This document shows positions 17,581 through 49,192 of a stretch of DNA of 64,000 nucleotides, in pieces. How positions within the stretch are numbered: position 1 is the stretch's first letter; each line of letters begins with the position of its first letter. This stretch comes from Patescibacteria group bacterium. GTDB taxonomy: Bacteria; Patescibacteriota; Microgenomatia; UBA1400; PJMF01. Location: assembly GCA_039934415.1 (NCBI GenBank), contig JBDTME010000002.1, positions 92,746-156,745 of the forward strand. The letters run 5' to 3'. The notes beneath the pieces are model-generated. The model was not told the DNA's origin and made no database searches. It saw only the letters and a program-made list of their open reading frames with translations. The translations under genes were made by a program, and so were the position numbers.

Positions 17581-17618
17581 GCTTTCAACTTTAAGCGTTC
17601 CCCTCTATAATATCACCC

Positions 17619-21537: not shown

Positions 21538-21609
21538 AGTCTTCCTTCAATTGCCGATTGTAACACGTCACTAAGGTTCTGCTCGCTTAAGTTAAAAGCT
21601 TTTATTCTG

Positions 21610-21618
21610 TGATATAAT
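21610..21618 (+). promoter_or_regulatory. extended -10 promoter element TGATATAAT
   Basis: TGnTATAAT match. It would initiate a ~450-nt leader upstream of valS. Confidence 0.45.
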
Positions 21619-21624
21619 TTCCTC

Positions 21625-21950: not shown

Positions 21951-22071
21951 GACTGATACACTTTTCAAATCAGTTAAGTCAGATTGCGAGGTCTGGCGAA
22001 GTGTGAGGAGCCAGACTAAGCAAGATCATAAAAATCAAGTATTTGAGACAATCAAGTATTAAAGGAAAACT

Positions 22072-24369
22072 ATGGAAAAAAACTTTGATCACGCTCAACA
22101 AGAAGCAGCCATGTACGATCTTTGGGAAAAAGCGGAGGCGTTCAATCCAGACAGAATGCAAACAAAAAAGAAGACAGAAAGTGGTCGAGTCAAGTCAAAG
22201 CAGTTTTCAATCATCATGCCACCTCCCAACGCAAATGATCCGTTACACGTGGGTCATGCAATGTTTATCTCAGTAGAAGATATTTTAATTCGTTATCACC
22301 GGATGAAAGGTGACGACACGGTCTGGATTCCAGGCACAGATCATGCCGGCATCGAAACACAGTTCGTATTTGAAAAGAAATTAGCTAAACAAGGCAAAAG
22401 TCGATTTAACTTTGATCGAGATACTTTATACAAAATGATTTGGGACTACGTCCAAGAAAACTCCGGTGTGGCAGTAGATCAAATGAAGAAGTTAGGTGCA
22501 AGTGCAGATTGGTCTCGCTTTAAGTTCACACTCGATCCATCTGTTGTTGATTTCGTCGTGCAAACATTTCAAAAAATGCACGATGACGGACTAGTCTATC
22601 GAGATTTAAAACTGGTTAATTACTGCACTCACTGTGGCACGAGTTACTCTGAATTAGAAGTAAACCACACGGAGCAAACGACAAACCTGTATTACATTAA
22701 ATATCCTATGGCAGACGATCCCAATGAACACATTGTTGTCGCTACCACTCGACCAGAGCCGATTTTCGCAGACCAGTATTTAGCTGTGCATCCAGACGAC
22801 TCTTCAAAACAACATTTAATTGGAAAAAAGGTTTTGAATCCGCTCACAAAACAACCGATGGAGATCATTGCCGATTCGTTTGTGGACCCAGAGTTTGGTA
22901 CGGGAATTGTCAAACTCACACCAGCCCATGACTTCACAGACTTTGAAGTTGCTCAACGACATCATCTGCCTCTTGTACCTGCCATTGGTTTGGATGGGAA
23001 AATCTTGGAAAACGGTGGGGAGTTTGCAGGCTTAAAAGTTGCAGAAGCCAGAAAAAAAGTGGTAGAGGTCTTGGAAAAAGCAAATCTGATCGAGAAAATT
23101 AATTCGCAATATGTAAATCGCATCGGAACCTGTTATCGATGCGGTCGAATCATTGAGATCCTTCCACTCCCTCAATTTTTTATCAAAGTAAAAGATCAAA
23201 AAAACAATTTAACGCAAAAAGTGTTGGATGTTTTAGACAAGCAAGAAACCAAGATTTATGGAGCTGGTCGAGAAAAGATTTTGAGAAACTGGTTAGAAAA
23301 CTTAAAAGATTGGAATATTAGTCGCCAGATTGTGTGGGGCATTCGAATCCCTGTCTGGTATGAGATCACAGGGAACGAAGAGAAAATTTCAGTCACATTT
23401 ATTAACTCAAAAGGTGAGTTTCAAAAAACCGCCACACTACAAAAAAGACTCGATGAAGGCTATTCAATAGATGAAATTAAAAAAGGCTTGCAGCAAGTCT
23501 ACGCTCCTGCTGAGAATCATTTTGTTGTATCTGAAAAAAATCCAGGCGAGACATACCTCCCAGAAACAGATACTTTCGATACTTGGTTTTCTTCTGGTCA
23601 GTGGCCAATAGTGACGTTGAAAACAAACAAAGAAAATGATTTTGATCGTTTCTACCCCACGACAGTCATGGAAACTGCATACGATATTTTACTTTTTTGG
23701 GTAATGCGGATGATGATGATGGGCGTGTACTTGGAAAATAAAACCCCATTTGCACACGTCTATTTGCACGGGCTTGTGCGTGATGAAAAAGGTCAAAAAA
23801 TGAGTAAGAGTAAAGGGAATGTCATAAATCCTTTAGAGTTTGTAAATAAATATGGAGCTGATGCCGTCAGAATGGCTTTGATCATGTCCTCTACTCCAGG
23901 CTCTGATTCAGCGGTTGGTGAAAGTAAGATTCGAGGCATGCGAAATTTTTCAAATAAAATTTGGAATGCGGTGAGATTTATTTTATTAACTCTGGAAGAT
24001 GAATCACAAAATCACTCTGAAAAAAATCTAGACTCGGTTAAAGATCAGGCCTTTGAAAAGAAACTGAACGAGGTTGTTGGACAAGTCACAGATCAACTTG
24101 AAAAACTAAAAGTTGGAATGGCGGCAGAGATAGCCTACAACGAATTCTGGCACTGGTTTTGTGACGAGTGTATTGAAGAGCAAAAAAAAGGAAACCTTTC
24201 ACGCGATGCATTGTTAAAAGGCTTAATCACATTTTTGCGACTTCTCCATCCTTTTGCACCATTCGTAACTGAAACCGTTTGGCAAGAATTGTGGAACAAT
24301 GGTGATGAGCAGCTGAAAAAACAATTAGGAAGTAAGTTGTTGATCGTAGCTGAGTGGCCAACAGAATAA
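22072..24369 (+). CDS. valS: valine--tRNA ligase (short form without a C-terminal coiled coil)
   Basis: Class I HIGH (PLHVGHAM) and KMSKS (KMSKSKGN) motifs. The editing-domain and anticodon-binding regions are present. 765 aa. Confidence 0.85.
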   Translation: MEKNFDHAQQEAAMYDLWEKAEAFNPDRMQTKKKTESGRVKSKQFSIIMPPPNANDPLHVGHAMFISVEDILIRYHRMKGDDTVWIPGTDHAGIETQFVFEKKLAKQGKSRFNFDRDTLYKMIWDYVQENSGVAVDQMKKLGASADWSRFKFTLDPSVVDFVVQTFQKMHDDGLVYRDLKLVNYCTHCGTSYSELEVNHTEQTTNLYYIKYPMADDPNEHIVVATTRPEPIFADQYLAVHPDDSSKQHLIGKKVLNPLTKQPMEIIADSFVDPEFGTGIVKLTPAHDFTDFEVAQRHHLPLVPAIGLDGKILENGGEFAGLKVAEARKKVVEVLEKANLIEKINSQYVNRIGTCYRCGRIIEILPLPQFFIKVKDQKNNLTQKVLDVLDKQETKIYGAGREKILRNWLENLKDWNISRQIVWGIRIPVWYEITGNEEKISVTFINSKGEFQKTATLQKRLDEGYSIDEIKKGLQQVYAPAENHFVVSEKNPGETYLPETDTFDTWFSSGQWPIVTLKTNKENDFDRFYPTTVMETAYDILLFWVMRMMMMGVYLENKTPFAHVYLHGLVRDEKGQKMSKSKGNVINPLEFVNKYGADAVRMALIMSSTPGSDSAVGESKIRGMRNFSNKIWNAVRFILLTLEDESQNHSEKNLDSVKDQAFEKKLNEVVGQVTDQLEKLKVGMAAEIAYNEFWHWFCDECIEEQKKGNLSRDALLKGLITFLRLLHPFAPFVTETVWQELWNNGDEQLKKQLGSKLLIVAEWPTE

Positions 24370-29926: not shown

Positions 29927-30385
29927 TTAGTTTTTCAAACTGATCACTAATCGTCGCTGCAAACCTTCACCTTCTGACTGAGTCACTACTTCAGGGTGAT
30001 CTTTTAACTCAACGTGTACAATCAAGCGTTCGTTTGCAGGCAAGAACGGTAAGTATTGAGGAACATTGCTCTCGATGGCACGCTCCGCAAATCGATGTGC
30101 CATATTCTTCAAAACCTCTTCGCGTTTTTGCTTGTAATCATTGACGTTGACTACGATTCTTTTTTCTTCAGCTTTATCGCGGAAAGAAATATTCATCATG
30201 CGTTGAAGAGCCGCAATGGTTTCTCCGTGATGGCCAATCAGCATGCCACTTTCTTGGTCTGACACTGAAATCTGGACAACCACGTTTTCATCTTCTTCTA
30301 AGACTGCAACCTCAGCTTCAGTGACGCCCATGTGGGCGAGTAGGTCTTGGGTATATGTTGTAATATCTTGCATAAAATCCTTCAA
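29927..30385 (-). CDS. jag: Jag/KhpB-type RNA-binding protein (KH + R3H domains)
   Basis: KH GXXG loop LIGHHGETIAAL. Its position immediately downstream of yidC is conserved. Confidence 0.7.
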   Translation of the reverse strand: MKDFMQDITTYTQDLLAHMGVTEAEVAVLEEDENVVVQISVSDQESGMLIGHHGETIAALQRMMNISFRDKAEEKRIVVNVNDYKQKREEVLKNMAHRFAERAIESNVPQYLPFLPANERLIVHVELKDHPEVVTQSEGEGLQRRLVISLKN

Positions 30386-30397
30386 GTTTTTAATGTG

Positions 30398-31177
30398 TTA
30401 TTTTTTGAATGAATTGACTTTAGAAACAGCGAGCTTCCAATAAGAAACCAAGCCACCGAAACCAGAGATAAAGTACTGTTGTCCTGCACTGAAAGCCGTA
30501 GTGACGACCCAATACAAGGCAAGACCTGATTGGAATCTCCAAGCGATGAAACCCGTCATGATTGGCATCATAAATAACATTTGTTTTTGCATGCCAGCAG
30601 CCATTTCAGCAAAATCTTCTTCTTTTTCATTTGCTTTTTGCACTTCTTTCTTTTTACTGTCATTTGGCACGATGTCGGTGACTTCAGCGCCTGGTGAGAT
30701 CATCAAGGACAAGATGAACTGACTAACACCGGCAAGAATCGGCAAAATGTGTAATGGGTCTGGCTTACTCAAATCAAGCCAAGCAAACATCGGATTAATA
30801 GCGATTCCATTAATTTCGGTTTGACTAATAAATTGATGAAGCACTTGATACAAGACAATGAGTAAGACGATTTGAACTAGATACGGTAAACAGCCTGACA
30901 AAGGATTAATGTTATATTTTTTATACAACTCCATTTGGGCTTGTTGAAATTTAGCTTTGTCTTTACCGTGGAGTTTTTTTAATTTATCGAGTTCAGGTTT
31001 AAGATCTTGGATTTTTTTCTGTGAACGAAGTGACCCAAGAGAAAGCGGCACTAATAAGAAACGAATTAACAGAGTCAGTACGATGATTGCGATACCTAAG
31101 TTACCAGTCAGCTGATACAGCTGTAATAAAATCTGTATAGTGAAGTCTTTGATAGGGTTAAAAATTGTACCGAGCAT
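30398..31177 (-). CDS. yidC: membrane protein insertase YidC/Oxa1 family (short form)
   Basis: A conserved five-helix core with PLSGCLPYLVQ and the C-terminal LALYWVVTTAFSAGQQY. Confidence 0.85.
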   Translation of the reverse strand: MLGTIFNPIKDFTIQILLQLYQLTGNLGIAIIVLTLLIRFLLVPLSLGSLRSQKKIQDLKPELDKLKKLHGKDKAKFQQAQMELYKKYNINPLSGCLPYLVQIVLLIVLYQVLHQFISQTEINGIAINPMFAWLDLSKPDPLHILPILAGVSQFILSLMISPGAEVTDIVPNDSKKKEVQKANEKEEDFAEMAAGMQKQMLFMMPIMTGFIAWRFQSGLALYWVVTTAFSAGQQYFISGFGGLVSYWKLAVSKVNSFKK

Positions 31178-31197
31178 AAAAAGTTTTTTTCTAGTTT

Positions 31198-31446
31198 TTA
31201 AACAGTTTGTTTAGATTTGTCGAAATTGTAACCAGGGCCGACACAACTCACCACTCTTTTTCCTCCTAAAAATAACCCTGAGATTGTACCATGCTTTTGA
31301 ATCTGCTGGATTGTATATTGGCTGCAGGTAGGGGAGTAGCGACACTGGAAGTGAAAACCAAACACACTTTGCAAAACAGCATTAAGTACTGGACTCAATA
31401 TGTTTTGGTAGGCTTTGATCAGCGTAATGGAAAGGCGTTTCATCAT
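31198..31446 (-). CDS. yidD: membrane protein insertion efficiency factor YidD
   Basis: YQNILSP...CRYSPTCSQY..QQIQKHG..G..LGGKRVVSC matches the YidD/haemolytic-domain signature. Confidence 0.85.
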   Translation of the reverse strand: MMKRLSITLIKAYQNILSPVLNAVLQSVFGFHFQCRYSPTCSQYTIQQIQKHGTISGLFLGGKRVVSCVGPGYNFDKSKQTV

Positions 31447-31766
31447 GAGTTGAGCTGTTGAACAGCGGTGTTGACCATTTCGTTTAGTACAGAAAAAGAT
31501 TTTCCCAAACTCGTTTTGAACAGCACTACCACGACTTGTTTGGACTCAAAACCTGCTTGCTGAGCGACGAGGATGGCTCGCATTCGTCTCAGGATTTTGT
31601 GACGTTCGGTTGCCTTTAAACTGACTTTTTTGGGTACCACGACGGCAAACTGAGTCTGCTCTGCAGGGCGATACAATACTTGAAATAAAGGGAAATTCTT
31701 ACGCTTCGCTGTTTTGAAAAAGTCTTTCTCTTGACGTAATTGTAAGCGAATGTGTTTAGGAAACAT
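31443..31766 (-). CDS. rnpA: ribonuclease P protein component
   Basis: A 107-aa basic protein between rpmH and yidD. It carries an FAVVVPKKV-type RNR-like motif region. Confidence 0.8.
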   Translation of the reverse strand: MFPKHIRLQLRQEKDFFKTAKRKNFPLFQVLYRPAEQTQFAVVVPKKVSLKATERHKILRRMRAILVAQQAGFESKQVVVVLFKTSLGKSFSVLNEMVNTAVQQLNS

Positions 31767-31768
31767 TA

Positions 31769-31912
31769 TTAAACCGTTAATTTTTTGCGCCCTTTAGCAC
31801 GTCGTCTCTTGAGTACAGTACGACCATCGTTTGTCATCATGCGTTTCATGAATCCATGAACTCTGACGCGTTTCATTTTTTTTGGCTGCCAAGTGCGTTT
31901 TGTTTTTGCCAT
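31769..31912 (-). CDS. rpmH: 50S ribosomal protein L34
   Basis: My hand translation gives [47 protein letters not shown] (47 aa). It is below the ORF-track size cut-off and sits directly upstream of rnpA. The overlapping ORF 31794..31976 is spurious. Confidence 0.85.
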
Positions 31913-32115
31913 ACACTAACTCCTTAACATTGTAGTCTGAAGGAAGTATTGTACTCGAGATTGTTCTTCCGCACAAGGATTGAGGAAAAACAGGAAGAAT
32001 TCATCATAACCAGGGATAACAACGCTCAAAAAACTTTTTCAGTGCTTCCTTTTGGGGAGGTAATAAAAATGTGGAACAATTTGTGGAACAATTTATTTTA
32101 GGTCAATTCAGCCCA

Positions 32116-33216
32116 TCATGAATTTAACCGAAATGGCATAACGATGTAGAAAAAACCAGGCACTTCAGTGCAACTGAGTTGCGCAGATTTAAGAGGGTCA
32201 TTGCAACGCAGGATGCATTCCTTGCCTGAAATTCTCTGAAGAAAGTCCAGAATATAACGGCCGTTAAATGCGATGGTCATAACTTCTTCAGTGTTTGACT
32301 TCGCCTTTAAGGAACTTTCGTATTCACCGAGTAAAGAAGATTTAGCACTCACTACCACTTGATCAGGTGAGATTTCAATCAAAACGATACTAGAGCCTTC
32401 ATTGCTAAAAATCATAGCCGATTTAACATGATGTTCAAACTCTTGAGCATCGAGTCGGACTTCAGTCGCAAATGATGCTGGGATGATTTTTTGGTAATTG
32501 GGAAATTCACCTTCCAGTGTTCTCAATACGATTTGAGAATTTGGAAGACTGAAAAAGACTTGCTTGGCTCCTTCAGACAAAGACAGTTGCACGCTTTTGA
32601 CAGACTCGCTTTGAATGACTTTAGTAATTTCATCTAAGGCTTTAGCTGGAAACAAGAGTGTCTGAGGTTCGGCAACGTCTAACTCTGCCTGCAAAACAGC
32701 CAACCGATAACCATCTGTAGAAACAACTTTAGCGTTTTTGGCCAACTCAAATAATACTGAGGTTAAAATGGGACGGCTTTCGTCACGACTTGAAGCAAAA
32801 GTAACAAAGTCGACTGTTTGGTTAAAAAATTCGATTGGCAAAGTCATCGCTGTCCCTTCGGTTTGAGGGAATGGCGGAAAGTCTTGAACAGGAAACGTGT
32901 TAATGACCGATTTGATCTGTTTTGTTTTAATCGTCAGTGCTAAATCATTTAAACTCAGTTCCACGCTTCCAGATAAGCTCGAGACAAGTTCGTTTAATAC
33001 TTTGGCTGGAATGACGCAGGCTCCAGGTTCAGTCACAGTTCCTTGAATCTGTTGTCTCATTCCCATCTGCAAATCAGTTGCTGTTAACCAGATATTTTGA
33101 TCGACTGCCTCCAAAAAGAAACAAGAAAGAATAGGAAGTTGAGGCTTCGTAGAAAGAAAACGAGCTGCTTTCTTAACTGCTGAGGAAAGATTAGATTGTA
33201 AGAGTTCTATTTTCAT
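32116..33216 (-). CDS. dnaN: DNA polymerase III beta sliding clamp
   Basis: 366 aa and a three-domain clamp pattern. It sits immediately downstream of dnaA. Confidence 0.85.
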   Translation of the reverse strand: MKIELLQSNLSSAVKKAARFLSTKPQLPILSCFFLEAVDQNIWLTATDLQMGMRQQIQGTVTEPGACVIPAKVLNELVSSLSGSVELSLNDLALTIKTKQIKSVINTFPVQDFPPFPQTEGTAMTLPIEFFNQTVDFVTFASSRDESRPILTSVLFELAKNAKVVSTDGYRLAVLQAELDVAEPQTLLFPAKALDEITKVIQSESVKSVQLSLSEGAKQVFFSLPNSQIVLRTLEGEFPNYQKIIPASFATEVRLDAQEFEHHVKSAMIFSNEGSSIVLIEISPDQVVVSAKSSLLGEYESSLKAKSNTEEVMTIAFNGRYILDFLQRISGKECILRCNDPLKSAQLSCTEVPGFFYIVMPFRLNS

Positions 33217-33239
33217 AATCAGTTTCTTTAGTCATTCCT

Positions 33240-33700
33240 TAAAATACGTGTGTCCACTAGTTGTTTCTAAAAGAGATCTAATTGATTGAGGCAGGAAATG
33301 GGTTTGGTGAAAAATTCAAACGTTCTTTCGTAGTATAGAGAACAATTGCAAATTTACAAAAGTTAATTCATTTCAGCTTAATTTCATTTTCAGTTTCTTC
33401 TCTACCTATATAAATTAATTAGTAGTAGGTCGTAGTAGAGAAGAGGACAAAAAGGATAAGCGGTGAACTATCACCAACAAGTTTGGGTTATGTTCCTGTG
33501 TACAACCGGGGAAAAAGCGGGGACAAATTTATAAACACCAGTGTTGATAAACACGAAACAGTGCACAACCCAAAGTGAACAATCCACATATCCACAACAG
33601 TTTTACAGTTGTAAACAAGGTTTTCTACAGCCTTTTCAACAGAGTTTTCCACAATGTGGAAAAGGGGGTGACGTAAAGTGGTTAAAAAATGACACAGCCG
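33240..33700. other. candidate oriC: an AT-rich unwinding region plus a DnaA-box cluster between dnaA and dnaN
   Basis: The boxes are ATATCCACA (33588..33596), AATCCACAT (33581..33589), a palindromic pair TTTTCCACA-A-TGTGGAAAA (33645..33663) and TTATAAACA (33529..33537). An ~80% AT stretch spans 33241..33440. Confidence 0.65.
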
Positions 33701-33759
33701 CCTTTTTGTGTTGGTGAGGTGAAGTTCTCGTTTTTCAAATAACGTTTTTCTAGTGTGTT

Positions 33760-35364
33760 CTATTCGTATGCTGTTATTTGTTCAGTTGGAACTCCACCCG
33801 AGAGTGATGTTCTGACTGCCTGGACTTGGGTTCGTAATTCTTCATTTGCGGGAAGTGCCTCTTCAATTTTTTTGACTGCGTGCATGACGCTGGTGTGATC
33901 ACGATCTCCGAAGTAACGGCCAATCTCAGCAAATGGTAAATCTAAGTGGTGTTTGATCAGGTACATGGCGATGTGTCGTGCATTGGCGATTGGCTTTGAT
34001 CGTTTTGGCCCTTTGATATCCATGAGTTTGATGTGGTATTGATTGGAAATTGTTTTAATAATTTCAAGTGGTTTGGCGTAGATCTTTTCTTGTTTTTGAT
34101 CAGTGACCTGGTGTTGTCGCAAAATTTCTTGAACGAGATCATGGGTAATTGGTTTGTGGCGCAGGACGTGTTCTGAGTGGAGAGCTTTGACGATGCCTTC
34201 AAGTTTTCGAGTACTGGTGATGGCTGATGCAATGCGCTGAGCGATATCCATGGGAATCGAAAACTGAATTTGTTTGGCTTTGATCAACACAATCGCAATA
34301 CGTAACTCGAAAGACGGTTGTTGAATGTCGATGCTGAGTCCGCCTTCTAATCGTGATTGGATACGATCGTCCAGTGGACTGATTTCGTGTGGAGGCCGAT
34401 CGGAAGTTAGAATAACTTGGCCACGCGATTTCAACACTGAGTTAAAGGTGTGGAAAAACTCTTCTTGCATGGCGCGTTTCCCAGCCATGAACTGAATGTC
34501 ATCAATCAGTAAAATTTGCACCGATCGGTATCGCTGTTTCATCTGGATTGTTTTTTTTGTCTGAATCGCCTCCACAATCTCATTCATAAACTCTTCACCT
34601 GTTCGATAAATCATCGTGAAGTTTTGGTTGTTTTTTAAAATGTTTTGGCCAACGGCCTGCATCAGGTGTGTTTTGCCGACACCCACACCTCCATAGAGAA
34701 AGAGTACGTTATACGCTTTGCCCGGGTTTTGAGAGACTGCAACGGCTGCAGCGTGTGCCATTTCATTGGTGGATGAGACCGCGAACGTATCAAAAGTATA
34801 ATTTTTATTCAAGCCAGCTTGCTGGATTTTATAATCCACCAAATCTTCACCAGCTTGTTGAATACTAGCTTGGGAGAAAAGTGAAGCCACCGTGGGCGAA
34901 GATGGTTCATCAAGCGCTGTCTGATTCTCAGGCACATTGAGTTCTAATGATTGTTGGTCGATAGAAGTGGCTTTGCGCGATTTATGGGGAGTTGTAGGAA
35001 GAGTAAAATCGCCGACCTTGAGCTTGAGTTCAACCGGTTTTTCCACAATGGCACTAATGCAGTCTGTAATCGCAGCCTTGAAGCTTTTTTCAATGATTGA
35101 GATATGAAAAGAAGTAGGGGACTCAATCGTGCAAATCACTTTGTCCTCGACCTCTTGAACATCCGACAAGACATTCGGGAAAATCCAGGTTTTAAATACC
35201 CCTTGGGAAAGGTTGGCAGCAAGTTCTGCACAGACTTTTCCCCATAGCTCTTCAGGTGAGTAGATCATAGATTGAAATAGGTTTTTCTTGAGGAAGCTCT
35301 GATAAAATTGGGGCAGGAGATCGTACTTTTCCACACTATACACTGAGTTTTGCACAATGCGCAA
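33760..35364 (-). CDS. dnaA: chromosomal replication initiator protein DnaA
   Basis: AAA+ Walker A GGVGVGKTHLMQA, Walker B LLIDDIQF and a C-terminal DnaA-box-binding HTH region. Confidence 0.9.
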   Translation of the reverse strand: MRIVQNSVYSVEKYDLLPQFYQSFLKKNLFQSMIYSPEELWGKVCAELAANLSQGVFKTWIFPNVLSDVQEVEDKVICTIESPTSFHISIIEKSFKAAITDCISAIVEKPVELKLKVGDFTLPTTPHKSRKATSIDQQSLELNVPENQTALDEPSSPTVASLFSQASIQQAGEDLVDYKIQQAGLNKNYTFDTFAVSSTNEMAHAAAVAVSQNPGKAYNVLFLYGGVGVGKTHLMQAVGQNILKNNQNFTMIYRTGEEFMNEIVEAIQTKKTIQMKQRYRSVQILLIDDIQFMAGKRAMQEEFFHTFNSVLKSRGQVILTSDRPPHEISPLDDRIQSRLEGGLSIDIQQPSFELRIAIVLIKAKQIQFSIPMDIAQRIASAITSTRKLEGIVKALHSEHVLRHKPITHDLVQEILRQHQVTDQKQEKIYAKPLEIIKTISNQYHIKLMDIKGPKRSKPIANARHIAMYLIKHHLDLPFAEIGRYFGDRDHTSVMHAVKKIEEALPANEELRTQVQAVRTSLSGGVPTEQITAYE

Positions 35365-35424
35365 GCATGGGAATTGGCAGAAAACGAGAGTGTTGCTCCA
35401 AACCCGCGTAAGGTCCTATAGTTG

Positions 35425-35453
35425 TTGACGAAAGGGTGAAAATAGAGTACAAT
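35425..35453 (+). promoter_or_regulatory. near-consensus sigma70 promoter TTGACG-17-TACAAT
   Basis: Read directly. It would transcribe the small ORF 35500..35760, divergent from dnaA. Confidence 0.55.
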
Positions 35454-35499
35454 GTCTACTCGAAAATAAAATTATCAATCCGAATCTTAAAAGGTTAAT

Positions 35500-35760
35500 A
35501 TGCCAAGAAGTAACGAAACAACATATCACAGACCAAGAGTTGAATTGAGTGTTGAAACTCAAAACGAGTTGCTCACTAGATCGATGGCTGCTGTTTTACA
35601 AAATGAAAATATTCAGCCAGGAGTTAGTCTTACTGATCTTTCTACACATGAACAAAATCGTCTAACCTTACTGGCAAATAGACTTTATGTTGAGTTGAGA
35701 CGAGAGTGGATACAAGCACATGTGAGTCAAAAGATAGAAGAGAAGCCTCTAACAGCTTAA
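35500..35760 (+). CDS. hypothetical small protein (86 aa)
   Basis: An ORF downstream of a strong promoter with an AAAAGG RBS-like context. No motif. Confidence 0.35.
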   Translation: MPRSNETTYHRPRVELSVETQNELLTRSMAAVLQNENIQPGVSLTDLSTHEQNRLTLLANRLYVELRREWIQAHVSQKIEEKPLTA

Positions 35761-35791: not shown

Positions 35792-37729
35792 CTACCCTTG
35801 TGTCTGTTGTTTTCGATCCGCTAACACTTTTGCTTGGGCGGCTTGTTGGTCGTTCATTTTTTGTTTGGCGAGTAATTCTTCTGGGTTGGTCGTAATCAGT
35901 TGATGTTCAGTGTCTGAAGCAATGACGCGCAGCGCCACGTGATTTTGACCAGCAAAGAAAATTCCTTCTCCCACATCTGAAGCTAAGAGTAGTCGTTGTT
36001 CACCTTCCGAAAGATAGAATGTTTGGGTCAAAATAGGCATCGAGGCACTTGATTGTTTCATCAAGAATTGAATCGAAGAGTTGGTCACGATGGCTTTGCC
36101 GTAATCGTTATTCAAGAAATCCTCTACATCCTGAGTGATTGTGGTAATACCCAAGAAGTATTTTCTGGCGCGTTTGGCGATGGAGTGGAGGAATGAGGCC
36201 GAATCGGCATACTTCATGAAGTACCACGCCTCATCAACAATCAAAATTCTTTTTTTCAGTTTTTTCTTTACACGAGTCCAGATAAAGTCCAAGATCATGA
36301 ACATTGCAATTGGACGCAGTTCTTCGTGTAAATCTTTAACCGAAAAAACCGTAAACGCGTTATGAATATCTAGATTTGATTTTTGGTCAAAAATACCGCG
36401 GAATGAACCTTTAATAAATTTCTCCAGTCGAGCAGATAAATTGAGCGCGTCTTGCGTCTCCATACCAATCAGGGCTTTATACAAGTCTTCCATTAATGGA
36501 GGCTCATTGGCTTGAGTTGCTGGATCTGGAGTAATGCCTTTGGCTTTATATGCTGCTACCAACGCTTGATCAAGAATAGCGTCTTCGGTTGGAGTCATCT
36601 CGCCCATCATCACTCTCAACAATGTGTGCAAAGAAATGATTTTTTGGCCTAGCTCGTTTTCGCCTTCTTCATAAACATTCGATAAATCAAATGGGTTGAT
36701 CTTGGTAGTGGCGCCGAAAGTGAAGTTAATATACTCGCCACCGACTGATTTACACAACTCTTCATACTCATGTTCAGGATCGAGAATCAAAATGTCCGCA
36801 CCAAAAATGAGTTGACGGAGGGCTTCGAGTTTAATTGTATATGATTTTCCAGCACCAGATTTGGCAAAGACGACCATGTTAGCATTTTCCAAACTGAATC
36901 GGTCAAAAATAACCAACGAACCATTATGCTCATTTAGACCATACACAATCCCATTATCTTGAGTCAATTCTGAAGACGTAAATGGAAACGTCGTTGCTAA
37001 AGAAGTCGTGTCCATGTTGCGCGTGATGAGTAACCGATCAACTCCCATTGGGAGTGTTGTTTTGAAACCATCTTCCATTTGTAGAGATGCTTTTTTGGAC
37101 ACAATGAGCAAACTTCCCAGCAATGATTGGAGTTGTTTACTACTACTCTCAAGCTTTTCTTTCGAGGTGTCCATTAACGTACAGTACAGACCAAACTGAT
37201 AGAAACGCTCAGAGCCTTTGGCGAGCTGTTCTTGCAGGGTGCGCGCATCTTCGAGCTTCACTTCCGTATTAATGTTGCTAATTTTCCCCGAACGAATGTC
37301 TGACTGAATTTCCGCTTCCATCTCCGTAATTTTGCGACGAAGATTGTCCAGAATCTTGTCGACCTCTTGGGGAAATATGTACATGCTAATATCGAGACGG
37401 TGCGGAAAATTAATTAACGGTGACAACCAATTTGCCGGGACTGTTCTGGGATACCCGGCGATGAAAAAGGTTCTAGTGTAAGTCGAGTTGATTTTTTGAT
37501 AAGTAAAGTCGACCTCAATTGCTTCTGGGGCGATGATGTCCTGAATGCTCACCAATCCTTGCGCAAACTGTTTCAAGACCTTCTGGTTTTCCAGGTCTTG
37601 TGTTGCTTTCTGTTGCTCTTCTTGAGAAACGGGTTTCTTTTTCAAAAAGGGCAGTGGTAGGTTGATTGAGAATTTGGGCATCACTCGATTAATTATCCAT
37701 GCCTGGTTGTGGCGTACTTGGCATTTCAC
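35792..37729 (-). CDS. type IV secretion system ATPase, VirB4/TrbE/PrgJ family
   Basis: Walker A VVFAKSGAGKSYT, Walker B RILIVDEAWYF and an overall 645-aa VirB4-like domain organisation. Confidence 0.8.
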   Translation of the reverse strand: MKCQVRHNQAWIINRVMPKFSINLPLPFLKKKPVSQEEQQKATQDLENQKVLKQFAQGLVSIQDIIAPEAIEVDFTYQKINSTYTRTFFIAGYPRTVPANWLSPLINFPHRLDISMYIFPQEVDKILDNLRRKITEMEAEIQSDIRSGKISNINTEVKLEDARTLQEQLAKGSERFYQFGLYCTLMDTSKEKLESSSKQLQSLLGSLLIVSKKASLQMEDGFKTTLPMGVDRLLITRNMDTTSLATTFPFTSSELTQDNGIVYGLNEHNGSLVIFDRFSLENANMVVFAKSGAGKSYTIKLEALRQLIFGADILILDPEHEYEELCKSVGGEYINFTFGATTKINPFDLSNVYEEGENELGQKIISLHTLLRVMMGEMTPTEDAILDQALVAAYKAKGITPDPATQANEPPLMEDLYKALIGMETQDALNLSARLEKFIKGSFRGIFDQKSNLDIHNAFTVFSVKDLHEELRPIAMFMILDFIWTRVKKKLKKRILIVDEAWYFMKYADSASFLHSIAKRARKYFLGITTITQDVEDFLNNDYGKAIVTNSSIQFLMKQSSASMPILTQTFYLSEGEQRLLLASDVGEGIFFAGQNHVALRVIASDTEHQLITTNPEELLAKQKMNDQQAAQAKVLADRKQQTQG

Positions 37730-38885
37730 CTACTTTACCTATTGGTGGTGTTCCGGCTTGATTGAGAGTCTGGTCAATGACACTTTGTGGGTCAGGCATC
37801 GTTGACGAATTCACTGCGGACGTCATTGGTGTTTCAGGTGGTGTTGAGACGGTTGGCGACTCGCTTACAGAGCTACCTGGCATCGCGGCTGGCGTAGTCG
37901 CACTTGGAACAGCAGGGACTTCAGGGGTGCTCATGGGAGCAGGTGAAGTAGATGCCATTTGAGGTGGTGTTGCAAAACCAAGATCTGTTTTCGTAAAATC
38001 TGGCATTTCTGGTGTGGTGCTCATGGGCGTTGGAGCAGCTGGAGTCGCTGGCGCAGCCGTGAATGCTGGTGTTTCGGTCATGGTTGGAGTAGGAACGCTA
38101 GGAGCTGGAGCTGGTTGCATCGTTGGATTTGGTTGTGCTGCCGGAGTTGGTTGAAGACTTGTTGGCATGGTTGGGGTGTCAATCATAAAATCTCCTTGGA
38201 TTTTTGCCTGGACGAGAGGCGTAGTATAATTTGCTGTATCCGTTACTTTTTGACCTTCAAACGACTCAGGGTTGTATGAAGAGTATAGCATCTGGATCAG
38301 TTCTTGAGTGGTAAGTTGTCTGGAATACAAACCAATTCTGGCTAGTTGGTCGATAAGGTGATCGCGACGTGGTATCAGATTCGTTTTGGCTTTTTCAATG
38401 ATGTAATTCTTTTCAAAACTCGACAGCGACTTACTTTTGGCACCAGGAATGACACTCTGTGTGGTGAGACCCATCTCAACTGCTGACAGTGGGATGATGA
38501 TGTAAAACTTCTTATCCAGAACGTTTTGATCTTGAACGAGTGACTCCACAAAAGAATGGTACTCTTTTATTTTTTGTCTATAGATTTGGTTTGTCGCCGT
38601 GTCTTCTAAATCTTGAATTTTTTTGAGATAGGCTGTCACGTCTTTTGGTTGAGAACGGATGACGATCTGGATCGGATAACTCAATGAGTTAAGCAAAGCA
38701 GCATAAGCGTAAATCGTCGCGTCTTGTTCACCTTCCGAGAGAAGACCGAAGTTCATCGCAGAGACCGTAATGACGAGTGATGCTGCTCCATCGCCAAGAA
38801 TAATCAGATCATTGGTAATGTCGTACAGATCCAGGAAGAGCTGAGTGGTGGAATTGCTGACGGTATCAGTTTTTTGCTTTGCCAT
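37689..38885 (-). CDS. hypothetical T4SS-associated protein with a Pro/Thr/Ala-rich C-terminal half
   Basis: Its stop overlaps the VirB4 start by 41 nt (translational coupling). The ~240-aa N-terminal globular part is followed by a low-complexity PTPAAQP-type region. Confidence 0.4.
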   Translation of the reverse strand: MAKQKTDTVSNSTTQLFLDLYDITNDLIILGDGAASLVITVSAMNFGLLSEGEQDATIYAYAALLNSLSYPIQIVIRSQPKDVTAYLKKIQDLEDTATNQIYRQKIKEYHSFVESLVQDQNVLDKKFYIIIPLSAVEMGLTTQSVIPGAKSKSLSSFEKNYIIEKAKTNLIPRRDHLIDQLARIGLYSRQLTTQELIQMLYSSYNPESFEGQKVTDTANYTTPLVQAKIQGDFMIDTPTMPTSLQPTPAAQPNPTMQPAPAPSVPTPTMTETPAFTAAPATPAAPTPMSTTPEMPDFTKTDLGFATPPQMASTSPAPMSTPEVPAVPSATTPAAMPGSSVSESPTVSTPPETPMTSAVNSSTMPDPQSVIDQTLNQAGTPPIGKVGEMPSTPQPGMDN

Positions 38886-38922
38886 TGGGGTTTAATCTTT
38901 TAACTTTTAACTTTCAACTTAC

Positions 38923-39990
38923 TTACTCACTTGCTCGTATTTCGATTGGGTCAAGAATAGTGTTATTAAGCTCAAGTTTCTGAGTTGGAAACAGTATACC
39001 TTCTTTCTCTGCTTTCATAAAATACTCACCATTTTTGAGAGGAGTGCTGATGTAAAACTGTCCAATTTTGTTTGTTCTGACTGCGCGAACTGGCATGCCT
39101 TGATCGTCAGCAATTTCAACAATAGCGTTTTCAACGATGTTGCCAACCTGGTCAAACACCATACCGACAACAATGTTGGGTTGTGTTGGTTTCTTGGGAA
39201 AGGGGAGAGTGTCAGATGTTTGAACGTTGAGTGCAGCTGAGTGTTGTGCTGTGGGATCATCAACAACTAGAGAAGCGGCATTAAAAACGTCTACTACTTC
39301 TGAAGTAGTTTCAGGTGCAGGTGCTTCTACCGGAACAGTCACTTCTTCAATACTTGGCGGAAGAGTCTCCGGAATTTGTTCAGCTGTCAATCTTTCGTCT
39401 TCGTAAGGAACATTGGTTTTAAAGAGATTATCAAATTGTTGTAGTGGATGTTGTTGTGCTGTAAGGTCTGGTTTGGTTAGTAGTTCAACGGCATCTACTG
39501 TTTCGACGTGTACAGTGTCGAACAGCGATAGGACCGCACTCATCTGCTGGGCTTCTTGGTATGCCAGTGGATCTAAAGCAGACTCATCTGGAAGAGTGTG
39601 AATATACTCATAAATACGCTGTTGTTTTAAAGGAGATAAATCAAGTTCGTCTTGAAACGTCGTAGTTTCTTTCGTGGTATATGTTAAGTAGTCGGGCAAG
39701 TTACCTGATTTTCTCCAATAAAAGAGTGTTGGTTTATAAATTGCTCGAAATAAAGCGATGAACCATTGGTCGAGTGGACGGCCTTCATAGGGAACGAACG
39801 CGATCATTGCCCCAAGTCCAACGAAAAAAACAATCAGCGGCCACTTGATTACGCTATATAAATTCGTTTGATAAATCACCACTCCTAACAAAATTCCCGC
39901 ACCCAACTCCAAAAACTGCTTGAGCGTCATGTTCCCAATCAGGTGAAATTCGTAGCTAGTGACAGCTTGTGGTATCGGATGATCTTGCAT
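38923..39990 (-). CDS. hypothetical membrane protein: a PrgI/VirB3-like 2-TM N-terminus and a C-terminal carboxypeptidase-regulatory-like beta domain
   Basis: The two N-terminal hydrophobic helices occupy the position and size of VirB3/PrgI upstream of VirB4. The C-terminus carries the motif NKIGQFYISTPLKNGEYFMKAEKEG. Confidence 0.35.
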   Translation of the reverse strand: MQDHPIPQAVTSYEFHLIGNMTLKQFLELGAGILLGVVIYQTNLYSVIKWPLIVFFVGLGAMIAFVPYEGRPLDQWFIALFRAIYKPTLFYWRKSGNLPDYLTYTTKETTTFQDELDLSPLKQQRIYEYIHTLPDESALDPLAYQEAQQMSAVLSLFDTVHVETVDAVELLTKPDLTAQQHPLQQFDNLFKTNVPYEDERLTAEQIPETLPPSIEEVTVPVEAPAPETTSEVVDVFNAASLVVDDPTAQHSAALNVQTSDTLPFPKKPTQPNIVVGMVFDQVGNIVENAIVEIADDQGMPVRAVRTNKIGQFYISTPLKNGEYFMKAEKEGILFPTQKLELNNTILDPIEIRASE

Positions 39991-40078
39991 AAGAGTTGTA
40001 AGTTATAAGAGGTAAGTTGTAAGGAATAAGTTGTAAGAGAGTTATCTTTTCACTTATAACTTTAACTTAACCCTTCCC

Positions 40079-41137
40079 TCATTCTACCTTAACGGCTGGT
40101 GAGATAGCTTCGACGTTAAAGATGCTATTGTTTTTGTCTTTTCCAACGCCGTAAAAATGGATGTATGGCAGAATGTATCCATTCTGTTCGTTTTGTCTGT
40201 ACTCCAAGGTGGCCGAGCTAAACTCAACATTGGAGAGGTTCTCGGCATTTGGTTCAATAGCATCAAAGTTTCCTGCGTGAATATAGGTGATGAGACCGGC
40301 AAGCATCCTATCCTCGACTCCACCAAGCCCCAGAGAGTTTACGATTTGTACTTGTTCAAAACTGCTTGGAACAGGATAAAAGCTGATTTCTAAAATACTT
40401 GCATTTTTGTCAACTCTAATGATCGCTGGAGATTGAACCTTATCACTGGAAATGAATGGAATATTGTCTACTAAAGTGTTGAGTGTAATTTTGTACGCAT
40501 TTGTTGAAGCCTCGTCTTTTGCTGGTTCAGTACTTTCTGGATTTACGCTTTGAGGTTCTGGTTCTGAAAGTGTGTAGTTTTGGAACAACTGGTGTTCGTC
40601 GATAAACGACCGAATTTTTTTTGCTATTTCCTCATGAGTTACGGTTGCCGTTTTGGGTAAAGTATCATCTAAAATGCTGAGCAGAATGTCTTTCTTATAC
40701 GCAATGAGTGTCGCGTTGCCACTCGTTGTCAACTGATATTCTTGGTTGGCATCTTGCCAAGCGTTGCTTGTCCCAGGTACTGGAGTAAGCGGAAGTTGCT
40801 TAGCGAGTTTTTGTATGGTTGTTTCAATTGTTTCTGGTTGCAAGGCTTGATAAACAGCCAGCTTGCTAGGCATGCTCATTGTCAAGTTCTTATCGAAAGT
40901 GATTTGTGCTTTATATGTTTTTTCTGTAGTGACCACGGTTTCCGCTGGAGGAGGTGTTGGTGTCAGTGCCTGCAAAATAGCCGAAATAACAACAGCCAAA
41001 CCCATTATTACAATAAACACTCTCAACCATTTCTTCTGAAATAGTTTTGTGATGAATGATGGAAGTTGCAATCGATTATTTTCCATAATATTCGTCACAT
41101 CTTGGTCCTTCAGGTACTTTGCCAGCAGTGCTGACAC
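40079..41137 (-). CDS. hypothetical membrane-anchored protein (T4SS locus)
   Basis: 352 aa with one N-terminal TM helix. Its start overlaps the end of the preceding gene (41076..41137). Confidence 0.35.
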   Translation of the reverse strand: MSALLAKYLKDQDVTNIMENNRLQLPSFITKLFQKKWLRVFIVIMGLAVVISAILQALTPTPPPAETVVTTEKTYKAQITFDKNLTMSMPSKLAVYQALQPETIETTIQKLAKQLPLTPVPGTSNAWQDANQEYQLTTSGNATLIAYKKDILLSILDDTLPKTATVTHEEIAKKIRSFIDEHQLFQNYTLSEPEPQSVNPESTEPAKDEASTNAYKITLNTLVDNIPFISSDKVQSPAIIRVDKNASILEISFYPVPSSFEQVQIVNSLGLGGVEDRMLAGLITYIHAGNFDAIEPNAENLSNVEFSSATLEYRQNEQNGYILPYIHFYGVGKDKNNSIFNVEAISPAVKVE

Positions 41138-44100
41138 CTAATGTTTGAATTAAGGCATAGTCACTCAAACCTCTAATCTCATAGTGTAAGTGATTTCCAT
41201 CAGATGCTCCACCAGGACCATGCGTACTATCAACATGACCTACTAATTGTCCACCCTCAACCGTTTCGCCCACGTGGACGACGATTCCACCATCAATCTG
41301 ATGGGCGTAATAAGAAAGCCAACCACCGTGATCAATGACTAACAGATTGCCAAACGCATTATTGTCACGTTTAGTGGTGACAACTGTAACAACGCCTGGT
41401 GCAGCGGCGTAGATAGGAGTGTTTAATGGAGCCGCAATGTCGTAGGCGTCAGGACGAACTTTGAATCCGCCACAATGACTCCAACTTGGATGTGTAATAC
41501 ATTGTTGAGTTAAAACTGGGTGACTTATGGGACCAGTACCATATGGAAGTTGAGTCACCCTCCCTTTTACAGGCCAACAAGGAGGAACGGTTGTTGTCGG
41601 ACAATCTCCAAAACAGGTCTGTGCCCGACTGGTACTGCTGTCAGCTTGACCAGCTGCGGTGATGTTTGCCTTAATATCATTTTTGACCAAAGAATCACTA
41701 AAACGAGAGTCTGATGCATCGACGGTGAATTGAAGATGAATCGGCTGATCTGCTGTGAGTGGTTGGCCTGCCAAAGCAGCGAGTTGGTCAGTGAGTTCCT
41801 GAGGGAGAGCTGGCGGATCAATCACGTTCGAATCTTTATCAATTGCACTCATAGTATCTGTGAGTCCCGTAATGACGATCTCTTCCGTTGCCTCAGGTTT
41901 TTTGGAGAGGTCAATTGTGTATGTGATCGGACCTTGCGCATTAGAGTTGCTGGGTTGGGCAGTTTTTTTCAAAGTGATGTATCGCGATTCGTCAGCATCT
42001 AGCGAAAAGTATGGTGCGACTTGAGTGACGCTGGCATCGGGGAGGAAAGCGCTTAGGATCATGGATGTGGTGAAGATGTTTGCGATGACAATAGTTACTA
42101 GTGGGATGCCAACGGCAGCAGCTATAGTAGCCGTAGAGCCTGTGATACCTTGTGCAGTCAGTGTCTGTGCAGCTCCTTCTAAGAAGCCTGTAGTTTGACC
42201 CGCTGCAGTTGAAACTGCCGGTCTGGCAAAGTTGCTTAGTGCAGCTTTAGTACTTGATGGAAGAGCGCTCGCATAACTAGATGTACTTCCGGCATCAGAG
42301 GCGCCTTTCATAAATCCTGCTATGCCGCCCGCGATTGCTCCAACACTTGCCCCGATGGCTGTTCCAACCACTGGAAAAAAAGAGCCAATGATTCCACCGG
42401 CCACGGCACCACCAGCCACACCACCAAGTGTTGTGCCTGCCACACCCTGCACCATGTTTGTGATGATTCCGTAAATGGCTGCACCAGTTCCGGCAGCACC
42501 ACCAACGACAAGCACACCTTTTTTAAGCTGTGATGAGCCAATTTTTGTAGCCGTCCCCTGAAGACTAGCGGCATTGAGATTTCCTATGCCCTTGGCTCTG
42601 CCTAACCAGTCTCTTAAATTACTTAATCCTTGAACATTTCCTACCTGTGGAGCGTTCCAAGATTGATGTGGGACTGCTGTGTCATATAAAGCCTTATTGA
42701 AAGCCGCACGACCTTGATTGTCGAGCTGAGTTTGTCCTGCCGGAAGAAATTGCTGGCGATCAACCCCCAACATATTGCTGTAAAAGACTTGTTCTTGTTC
42801 ATCAAGATTGTTAATTTGTGCCTGTAACTGGTTGAGATACTGATTGCGAACGTAGAGCGCCTCAGCTCTCAGAAATTTTTCTTGTTCTGAAGCTTCTGCT
42901 GGAGTAATTGCCAAATCTCGAGTGAAAAAAGCATGAGCCAGAACTTTATCTGTATTGGCTTTATATTTGGGGGAATACGTTTTGATCAATTCTCGATATT
43001 GCTCCGTGGAAAGAGAGAGGGGTGTTGTCTCTCCGGGCTCAAGGCTATGAGTAAGTAAATTATTTTGGGTGTAGTTTGCCAACGCATGTTTTCGTTGCGC
43101 GACGTACGACTCCATGATCTGTAAAACCTCTTGATTGTTTCTGAGACTAGGATCGAGCTCGTTGAGCATGACCTTAAGATTGTCAGAGAGGAGATGAGGA
43201 CTACCGAGTGATAACGCGTAAGAATCAAGAGTATTGAGAATATTTATTTCAGCGGAGCCATCTTTATTATAAGTTCGTAATAAAGAGACGAGCGCTTCTT
43301 TGGGATTGTCTTTGCTGAAGCGTTGAAACTTGGCAAAGTTTTCGAAGTTGGCTTGAGTTACTGTTTTGCCATTTGTCTGCAATTGTTTGAGATAGACATC
43401 TATTTGTCCGAGCAGTTTTTTGCGTTCATCTGCTCCGAGAGAAAAAATGTTTTCTGGAAAGATCTGACGGAGTTCAAGAGGATCTAAGGCAGAGATTCCA
43501 GTCCCTTTCGTTCTTGGAGCTCGTCTCAAAATTTCATCGCCGAGGTTTTCGATTGACTCTGCAGAAACCATTGCTTCAAAAGTCGCAATTTGCTTGAGTT
43601 GCTTTTTAAACTCTTGTTTGGCGAGTTCTGAGTAATCTTGTGGAGCATCTTCTGAGTCGATTTTTTCTGAAAAGAGTTGGGTGGCATCCTCGGCAGTTTT
43701 AAGTGATCCTTTGAAACTCGTGTCGTTAAAAGCCTTGAGTTCAAACTTCTCTTTTAAAATTTCAGTTTTTAAGAGAAAGTACTCGTTGTTGCATAAGCGC
43801 TTATAAATTTGATCAACGTGTGAAAGCAGTTGTTGTCGGATCGTAATTCTGTCGGTGATTGATAGCCGGCCAGATTCAGCAAGTAGCAATGCGAATTGAG
43901 GGTTTTCTTGAAGATAGAGAGAAATGACTCCTGCAATATCCTCTTGGAGCGAGAATAATTGAAAGTCGAGTTGTCTTTGTTCATCGGCTGGTAGTTTGTT
44001 GTAAAACGTTCGCCAATCAGCGACATCTAGAGCCGAGTTCAACACTTCATTCATCAGGGCGCCAGAGTCTCTCCAACCTTCTTGAGCGGCGATTTTTTGA

Positions 44101-44771: not shown

Positions 44772-44876
44772 GTAGGGAAATTATACCTTGACAACCAGTG
44801 TGGAGGTAGGGGAGATGACTAGTTAAGTAGAATCATGACTTTCAGATGAATACCACGAGGTTTTTGTGTAAAGAGA

Positions 44877-45134
44877 TTAGTAGACTTCTTCGTGCGTGCC
44901 AATGTCGATGAAGAAGATGACATCCTCTTCTTGTAAAAAAAGAATTCTGACACTCATATTTACGTAGGCTGACACGACTTCAGTGTTTTTTAATTTATGT
45001 AGTTTTAAAGAAGGATGTTTTGGATTGTTCTTTATTAGCTTGATAGTTTTATTTACTCGGTATTCCCAATCTGTGTTCTTCTTAATGAGCTTTTGCAGCT
45101 TCTTGGCAAAAGATGCCGAAAAAATTAAACGCAT
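44877..45134 (-). CDS. type II toxin, RelE/ParE superfamily
   Basis: 85 aa with the basic beta-core pattern. Its start is 3 nt after the stop of the upstream antitoxin. Confidence 0.6.
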   Translation of the reverse strand: MRLIFSASFAKKLQKLIKKNTDWEYRVNKTIKLIKNNPKHPSLKLHKLKNTEVVSAYVNMSVRILFLQEEDVIFFIDIGTHEEVY

Positions 45135-45136
45135 AT

Positions 45137-45400
45137 TTATTTGAGTGAGTCGAAGAATTTATCAACGTCTTCATCTGTTTCCAAAACAGTACTTTTACCT
45201 ATAGCGTAATCCCTTTTGGCTTCTTTGATCAGATCTTCGTAGGGATCTTTTTGAACGAGTCTTCGGAGAGCGTCACGAATAACATCACTAAATGAGCTGT
45301 AAAAACCTAAGTCAACGAGTTCTTCGGCCTGAGCCTTGAGTTGTGCTGGTAGGGAGATGTTGATGGTAGCCATATGCATCATTATACAATAATTATACAA
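45137..45400 (-). CDS. type II antitoxin, ParD/CopG ribbon-helix-helix family
   Basis: ISLPAQLKAQAEELVDLGFYSSFSDVIRDALRRL is RHH-like. The true start is probably the internal Met at 45373. Confidence 0.6.
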   Translation of the reverse strand: MYNYCIMMHMATINISLPAQLKAQAEELVDLGFYSSFSDVIRDALRRLVQKDPYEDLIKEAKRDYAIGKSTVLETDEDVDKFFDSLK

Positions 45401-45414
45401 AAAATCAACAAAAA

Positions 45415-46230: not shown

Positions 46231-46261
46231 CTGGATTATAGTTCATTATAATTTGTGAAGC

Positions 46262-47365: not shown

Positions 47366-47380
47366 GTCAGGATAATAACA

Positions 47381-49138: not shown

Positions 49139-49192
49139 GAGTTGACTTGCTTATCTTATCACTTTTGGAGCAAATTTCGCTGAAATAATATG

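Follow-up and report, generated by a model that had tools for sequence, protein, structure and literature searches.

Within a stretch of 64,000 nucleotides (nt) from a Patescibacteria group bacterium of the Microgenomatia (NCBI GenBank assembly GCA_039934415.1, contig JBDTME010000002.1, positions 92,746 to 156,745), hereafter called the window, the spacer between two genes of replication, dnaA and dnaN (33217..33759), is very probably the chromosomal replication origin, organized like incC of Bacillus subtilis and placed in an odd gene order through inversion of a cassette. The initial annotation, made from the letters of the window, had proposed an origin neighbourhood here, and the spacer emerges as the best-supported oriC thanks to its cluster of DnaA boxes, its DnaA-trio repeats and its AT-rich element. 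This assignment draws directly on the gene identities, the clustering of boxes, the conservation and orientation of the unwinding module, the two gene arrangements and their distribution, and a strand-composition step visible across the clade. The elements concerned are the following.

33760..35268, minus strand: dnaA, replication initiator, 502 amino acids (aa) from an ATG start; Pfam DnaA_N, Bac_DnaA and Bac_DnaA_C
33217..33759: dnaA-dnaN spacer, 543 nt
33497..33685, minus strand: distal oriC DnaA-box cluster, 10 boxes with at most 2 mismatches to TTATCCACA, in both orientations
33645..33663: head-to-head (palindromic) box pair TTTTCCACA-A-TGTGGAAAA
33442..33459, minus strand: trio-proximal box pair TTATCCTTT + TTGTCCTCT, abutting 9-mers placed like boxes #6 and #7 of B. 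subtilis
33419..33438, minus strand: DnaA-trio repeats CTACTACGAC-CTACTACTAA, the complementary strand reading 3'-GAT-5'
33340..33422: AT-rich stretch, putative DNA unwinding element (DUE)
33332..33359, minus strand: promoter-like site for dnaN (TTGTAA, 16 nt, TATACT), from a consensus scan
32116..33216, minus strand: dnaN, beta sliding clamp; Pfam DNA_pol3_beta domains 1-3

The DnaA protein of the window shares 100% identity with P0001, an NCBI protein from a 163,572-bp contig that is annotated as 'chromosomal replication initiator protein DnaA [Patescibacteria group bacterium]'; if called mechanically from a TTG, the open reading frame (ORF) of dnaA reaches 35364. The initial annotation had described a 543-nt spacer with at least four good boxes, a perfect palindromic pair and a neighbouring stretch of about 80% AT. 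All of these were recovered, the length being exact, the boxes numbering 10 in the distal cluster and the AT content amounting to 79% over 33341..33420, which is the 99.96th percentile of the 80-nt windows of the stretch.

The spacer is the densest 600-nt stretch for DnaA boxes in the whole 64 kb. Six boxes fall in 122 nt of it, and dinucleotide shuffles of the window yielded a mean of 2.3 and a maximum of 5 boxes per 200 nt, none of 300 shuffles reaching six. When the spacer alone was shuffled, 0.63 boxes were expected and none of 1000 shuffles attained the six observed, while within 3.5 kb there are 15 boxes compared to a shuffle maximum of 12. The total over the whole window (57 boxes, 47.7 expected) is not above chance, so that the signal lies in the clustering. 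A box density no higher than background, which had been named beforehand as a sign against an origin, is thus not what is found. Since that objection required a misplaced skew minimum as well as a background density of boxes, and since the density is clearly above background, the proposal of an origin region is not refuted by the strand composition discussed below.

For comparison, species-representative genomes were scanned with an alignment of DnaA, which gave 80 Microgenomates-type loci in which the genes of the window were placed by tblastn. Nearly all of them fall into two arrangements. Of the 67 classified loci, 35 present the textbook arrangement, with the rpmH operon upstream of dnaA and divergent from it, and 32 (31 and the window) present the flipped arrangement, in which this operon follows dnaN. 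Counting boxes with at most 1 mismatch, dnaA-dnaN spacers carry 8.2 boxes per kb in flipped loci and 12.9 per kb in textbook loci, and the spacers upstream of dnaA carry 7.8 and 8.2 per kb, respectively, an enrichment of about 25-fold, compared to 0.29-0.42 per kb elsewhere in the same loci.

Read from dnaA to dnaN, the spacer presents the distal boxes, a conserved block CCAAACTTGTTGGTGA, the abutting boxes TTATCCTTT and TTGTCCTCT, 3 nt, the trio repeats, the AT-rich stretch and the promoter-like site. The trio run, CTA CTA CTA ATT preceded by CTA CTA CGA C, corresponds to four in-frame trios on the complementary strand, which agrees with the 3'-GAT-5' consensus (PMC8287927) and contains the run of at least three consecutive NAN trios. 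This module aligns block by block, including the blocks of the distal cluster, with four close relatives from independent assemblies, where the positional homologues of the proximal pair are TTCTCCACA, TTATCCCCT and similar boxes, and the motif 'TTTTGTAAA...GTTCTCTATACTACG' of the promoter-like site is conserved in two of the related loci (L082 and L083). On a wider scale, 29/32 flipped and 32/35 textbook loci present a box pair, 3-4 nt, CTACTACTAnnACTACTAATT and an AT-rich stretch, always oriented from dnaA to dnaN and located 30-60 nt upstream of the latter gene, so that boxes, trios and AT-rich element are kept in position and orientation in 61/67 loci. CTACTA repeats in the forward sense occur just upstream of dnaN in the same numbers of loci, and in the reverse sense in only 5 flipped and 3 textbook loci (61 versus 8 overall). 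The spacers between box and trios cluster at 4 and 13 nt across loci, the latter being the commonest value in a published search for the 'basal unwinding system' (BUS) of bacterial origins (PMC8287927).

In B. subtilis, this system lies at incC between dnaA and dnaN, and is made up of two paired boxes, a short gap, the trios and a region rich in AT (PMC8287927, PMC6669920); the distal boxes tolerate changes of position and orientation there, whereas the proximal pair is orientation-critical (PMC6669920). The region described here resembles incC in its location, in the mixed orientation of its distal boxes, in the presence of extra boxes upstream of dnaA, and in a proximal pair of fixed orientation that is followed by 3'-GAT-5' trios and then by an AT-rich stretch beside dnaN. 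It differs by its degenerate proximal boxes, by a 1-nt break in the trio run and by a head-to-head pair at the dnaA-proximal edge that is characteristic of this clade. The flanks differ as well, with the rpmH operon after dnaN instead of recF-gyrB and a type IV secretion system (T4SS) cluster upstream of dnaA. Finally, the origin of our bacterium is a prediction from sequence.

By analogy with this model, we infer that DnaA would bind the distal cluster, including the head-to-head pair of predicted high affinity, as well as the fixed-orientation proximal pair. From the latter, it would oligomerize onto the adjoining trio repeats, so opening the AT-rich stretch that lies next to them and immediately precedes the dnaN promoter. 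The two conserved boxes located upstream of dnaA would serve in the autoregulation of this gene.

35327..35335 and 35348..35356, minus strand: two direct DnaA boxes, TGTGCAAAA ... TGTGGAAAA in the sense of dnaA, exact matches to TTWTNCACA

Some 60-90 nt ahead of the start of dnaA, these two boxes flank a TATA-like element, and both are invariant in an alignment of five genomes (80-100% DnaA identity). They most likely autoregulate the dnaA promoter. Another reading is that the origin is bipartite, in the style of B. subtilis or Helicobacter pylori, with the pair at 35327..35356 forming a second sub-origin that is needed for function and makes a loop with the dnaN-proximal module. Origins flanking dnaA on both sides are already known (PMC4285127), and the invariance of the two boxes and the 25-fold enrichment of upstream spacers across the 67 loci are in favour of such an organization. 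However, the upstream part comprises only two boxes overlapping a promoter-like element, and foreign ORFs amounting to 1.2-4.5 kb are tolerated between the main module and dnaA in close relatives. A 1.2-kb insertion of one ORF (414 aa) separates the dnaA stop from the box cluster in L082 (11510..12754, minus strand; 90% DnaA identity), and a 4.5-kb insertion of three ORFs (976, 380 and 100 aa) is found at the same place in L084 (11417..15871, minus strand; 85% DnaA identity). The inserted ORFs are on the opposite strand, show no match in Pfam, PADLOC or PHROG, and leave the whole module joined to dnaN; on its dnaA side, the origin thus seems to have a hot spot for insertions. Because the distal boxes of B. 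subtilis can be moved by hundreds of bp (PMC6669920), the distance from dnaA to the module is not decisive alone, and we regard a bipartite origin as possible, with the odds clearly against it. As the module stays with dnaN in both gene arrangements and despite these insertions, the dnaN-proximal module looks like a self-contained origin core. Compared to oriC1/oriC2 of H. pylori (PMC8235120, PMC4285127), the likeness lies in the box clusters on both sides of dnaA and in a DUE with trios in the downstream part; the differences are an upstream part of just two boxes and relatives that tolerate kilobase insertions between the parts.

The genes that follow dnaN, and the first gene on the other side of dnaA, define the limits of the segment that appears to have been inverted.

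31769..31912, minus strand: rpmH; Pfam Ribosomal_L34
31443..31766, minus strand: rnpA; Pfam Ribonuclease_P
31198..31446, minus strand: yidD; Pfam YidD
30398..31177, minus strand: yidC; Pfam 60KD_IMP
29927..30385, minus strand: jag/khpB (KH+R3H); Pfam KH_KhpA-B and R3H
29927..31912, minus strand: the rpmH-rnpA-yidD-yidC-jag operon as a whole, downstream of dnaN and co-directional with it
35792..37729, minus strand: VirB4/TraG-type T4SS ATPase upstream of dnaA, marking the other inversion boundary; Pfam P-loop_TraG and AAA_10

The seven genes from dnaA to jag had been described as lying on the minus strand in one direction, and every identity is upheld by Pfam. Beyond jag, the run of genes goes on with an RNase H gene and then a DUF4012 gene. 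It had also been remarked that this order departs from the textbook, where rpmH-rnpA lies upstream of dnaA, and the comparison with related genomes bears this out: rpmH-rnpA lies downstream of dnaN on the same strand. In the 35 textbook loci, DUF4012, rnhA, jag, yidC, yidD and rpmH read in one direction, dnaA and dnaN follow in the opposite direction, and traG, further on, reads back toward them. In the 31 flipped loci and the window, traG, dnaA, dnaN, rpmH, rnpA, yidD, yidC, jag, rnhA and DUF4012 all read the same way, which is exactly the textbook layout with the dnaA-dnaN segment inverted in place. Thus, traG is upstream of dnaA and co-directional with it in flipped loci, and downstream of dnaN and convergent in textbook loci. 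In L025, L043 and L044, the nearest loci of the textbook type, traG lies directly against the 3' end of dnaN, which is what one simple inversion would demand. The order of the window is shared by four closer relatives from independent samples, whose DnaA identities are 80-90%.

Among bacteria at large, the textbook layout is the norm (PMC4285127), and it is also that of the outgroups, so that the flipped layout is to be seen as derived. In a neighbour-joining tree of DnaA, the flipped arrangement forms approximately one clade; it is nearly monophyletic, with the textbook-type loci L056, L011 and L018 nested beside L031. These data argue that the co-directional order arose by one ancient in-place inversion of a dnaA-oriC-dnaN cassette of about 3 kb, which had the rpmH operon on one side and the T4SS (virB4) cluster on the other. 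Since the endpoints of this inversion flank the origin, each gene kept its orientation relative to its replication fork.

Compared to the textbook bacterial order, dnaA and dnaN are still adjacent and the rpmH-rnpA(-yidD-yidC-jag) operon is intact beside the origin, whereas rpmH-rnpA is downstream of dnaN and co-directional instead of upstream of dnaA and divergent, and recF-gyrB does not follow dnaN. The textbook-arrangement Microgenomates (for example Woese-, Beckwith-, Gottesman- and Shapirobacteria) encode the same genes (DUF4012, RNase H, jag, yidC, yidD, rnpA, rpmH, dnaA, dnaN and virB4/traG) and present the same box-trio-AT module upstream of dnaN, but their cassette is opposite relative to both flanks and is devoid of the head-to-head pair with a 2-nt gap. 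A further local inversion is seen in L040 (JAZQJV010000003.1), where traG and dnaA read in one direction and are followed by yidD, rpmH and dnaN in the other; small inversions around this origin appear to recur. Many of the records L005-L078 are entitled 'uncultured Pseudomonadales bacterium' or 'uncultured Gammaproteobacteria bacterium', although they belong to the Microgenomates/Patescibacteria by DnaA and synteny, and their taxonomies are probably mislabelled.

An equivalent of the window's palindromic pair directly follows the dnaA stop, at the edge of the spacer nearest to dnaA, in 21/32 flipped loci, usually with a 2-nt gap, and a head-to-head pair occurs in 3/35 textbook loci, all with a 4-nt gap. 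These counts mark it as characteristic of the flipped clade. Since the flip, some 16 kb of genes, comprising those of the T4SS, recF and dnaA, read head-on toward the predicted origin. One may imagine that the flip came with the gain of this clade-specific, putatively high-affinity pair, which possibly acts as a DnaA-bound roadblock shielding the unwinding module from transcription, a scenario that we consider improbable. If true, the clade would represent a natural experiment on how origin polarity and insulation adapt to a local rearrangement, and would test whether the polarity of the BUS is independent of replichore identity.

The spacer on the other side of dnaN contains two features.

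32070..32093: tandem TGTGGAACAATT x2, which reads on the minus strand as two box-like sites TGTTCCACA
31925..31990, minus strand: rpmH promoter and ribosome-binding region (TTG..., GAGTACAAT, TAAGGAG)

The tandem repeat noticed in the initial annotation between dnaN and rpmH is indeed present. It may be asked whether the TGTTCCACA pair is a functional third DnaA site, perhaps a breakpoint relic of an ancestral rpmH-dnaA box cluster, acting on rpmH expression or on the origin. Its two identical sites, 12 nt apart, are one mismatch from the clade-favoured TTTTCCACA, and its location fits the ancestral rpmH-proximal half of the rpmH-dnaA spacer. On the contrary, the repeat lies in an insertion of about 115 nt specific to this genome and is absent from the dnaN-rpmH spacers of all four close relatives, in whose alignment the rpmH promoter and ribosome-binding region is the sole conserved block. 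Moreover, dnaN-rpmH spacers of the clade are often only 10-30 nt long, their 2,062 nt contain no box with at most 1 mismatch, and a single chance box-like site suffices to yield the pair by a 12-nt tandem duplication. A third site is therefore quite unlikely, conservation giving no support to a breakpoint relic; the function of the repeat is doubtful and, not being conserved in the four relatives, it is not counted as part of the origin.

Strand composition within the window cannot place a switch, and a paired analysis across the clade was used instead. The flipped clade offers the cleaner test because all genes around its spacer are co-directional. The coding-strand GC skew at 4-fold sites in this clade is as follows.

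traG: -0.37
dnaA: -0.39
dnaN: -0.15
yidC: -0.20
DUF4012: -0.10

The paired difference, downstream minus upstream of the spacer, is +0.21 and is positive in 30/30 flipped loci (Wilcoxon p = 2e-9). At 4-fold sites, dnaA is no different from traG and dnaN no different from the downstream set, while the genes that lie downstream of the spacer on the opposite strand (-0.33) are similar to the upstream ones. The meta-profile of skew at all sites also changes sign at the spacer. This step is the pattern expected if replication forks diverge between dnaA and dnaN, in which case the T4SS, recF and dnaA genes are transcribed head-on. As the 4-fold skews of dnaA and dnaN are both lower in flipped than in unflipped loci, an origin between dnaN and rpmH was also considered for the flipped clade; it was rejected in view of the dnaN-rpmH spacers, which are box-free and often short, and of the fit of dnaN to the leading-strand gene set and of dnaA to traG.

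Several observations weigh against an origin in the dnaA-dnaN spacer. A GC-skew switch near 33.4 kb had been predicted, and it is invisible in the window, whose raw cumulative skew reaches its minimum at about 16-17 kb. The change point may be set anywhere from about 16 to 42 kb, the fit of a regression on gene strand with a change point stays flat between about 15 and 42 kb, and pooled 4-fold contrasts of leading and lagging genes are as significant for one assumed origin as for another within 16.5-41 kb. The window's own 4-fold difference between upstream and downstream genes is small (-0.20 versus -0.155). Among textbook loci, dnaA varies in its 4-fold skew, and the average is not clearly that of a lagging-strand gene, which leaves room for a gene-intrinsic offset with dnaN above dnaA. 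Regarding the module itself, one extra base interrupts the trio run, and TTATCCTTT and TTGTCCTCT each have 3 mismatches to TTATCCACA, narrowly outside the published BUS rule, which asks for a box with at most 2 mismatches and a partner with at most 4, in fixed orientation, 0-16 bp from the first trio (PMC8287927). Concerning distance, TTGTCCTCT sits 3 nt from the trios with TTATCCTTT abutting it, and the mismatch limits of the rule are respected by the homologous boxes of 23/32 flipped loci, of 27/35 textbook loci and of the close relative L083 (TTCTCCACA).

The skew of the window could alternatively indicate that the true origin lies elsewhere, at about 16-25 kb near the skew minimum or outside the window, the boxes between dnaA and dnaN only regulating transcription of these two genes. 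In addition to the raw minimum, the best all-site change point (15.5-23 kb) is in line with such a location. Yet the 15-25 kb region is devoid of a DnaA-box cluster, of a trio run and of a comparable AT-rich intergenic region, its gap at 17581..17618 being only 38 nt long and that at 21538..22071 being a T-box-like leader. Furthermore, the skew of the window is dominated by gene orientation, so any origin from 16.5 to 41 kb fits equally, whereas the 4-fold skew across the clade steps exactly between dnaA and dnaN, and a strictly oriented box-trio-AT module is unexpected for a mere operator. We hold an origin elsewhere to be very unlikely. Lastly, the sequence comes from a metagenome-assembled genome (MAG), but an assembly or binning artefact can be dismissed as the source of the co-directional order, which recurs in 31 species-representative genomes and in the four close relatives, from independent samples and assemblers and on contigs of 54-360 kb.

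Around the predicted origin, additional features were recorded.

46262..47365, minus strand: recF-like gene, upstream of dnaA
35500..35760, plus strand: orf86, an 86-aa ORF between the virB4/traG-like gene and dnaA, reading away from dnaA
35792..51050, minus strand: block of about 15 kb with VirB4/TraG, PrgI-like, M23 peptidase, recF-like, SpoIID- and PIN-domain genes
51191..53285, plus strand: two ORFs with weak matches to the T4SS_pilin domain, divergent from the T4SS/recF block
21538..22071: non-coding leader of about 535 nt with GC-rich hairpins, upstream of leuS (22072..24369)

That recF and gyrB are not adjacent to the origin, as annotated initially, agrees with our results: the recF-like gene is 11 kb past dnaA, across VirB4/TraG-, PrgI- and M23-type genes, and no GyrB domain was detected among the large ORFs of the window. 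All genes of the 35792..51050 block read toward the predicted origin, that is, head-on to replication, an orientation that the virB4/traG-type gene keeps throughout the clade in either gene arrangement. The T4SS_pilin matches extend the T4SS-related region to about 53 kb. For orf86, no family match was obtained, including in PADLOC and PHROGs; an 83-aa counterpart with 30% identity is encoded at the same place in L084, and none in L082, L083 and L085. Where the window has orf86, the virB4-dnaA spacer of L083 contains a CCAA microsatellite of about 20 repeats (~9740..9830).

A search of the whole window with Rfam gave nothing at gathering score, and no tRNAs were found. A sub-threshold match to AsdA, an antisense RNA of the dnaA mRNA (34644..34695, plus strand; 31.8 versus 52 bits), lies opposite the Walker-A segment of dnaA and is most likely an echo of conserved coding sequence instead of an RNA gene. 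The leuS leader matches the Rfam T-box end to end, with the best match at 21676..21907 (plus strand; E = 1.7e-7) reaching 40.7 bits, far below the gathering score of 93; it is probably a divergent Leu T-box riboswitch.

The vicinity of a virB4 T4SS cluster to dnaA, dnaN, rpmH and rnpA has already been published for Microgenomatia and Paceibacteria (PMC12102498); as far as the parts of that report available to us go, it treats gene dosage and deals neither with the architecture of the origin nor with an inversion of the cassette, nor with the fact that the T4SS genes are oriented head-on. In the literature, we found no account of the origin architecture of Patescibacteria or of this cassette inversion and gene order. 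By most criteria, we are dealing with an ordinary dnaA-dnaN origin of the BUS type combined with a lineage-specific synteny variant, which does not reveal a new mechanism. Its value is that it calls the origin to about 100 bp in the Patescibacteria/Microgenomates, a group without an experimentally studied origin, and extends the box-trio-AT unwinding module of the B. subtilis type to the Microgenomates. In practice, estimates of replication rate (peak-to-trough) and the finishing of genomes can be anchored on it in these organisms. More generally, 'odd' gene orders near the origins of MAGs can be genuine and carry phylogenetic information, the dnaA-oriC-dnaN flip marking a clade and illustrating how origin-flanking inversions preserve the orientation of genes relative to replication.

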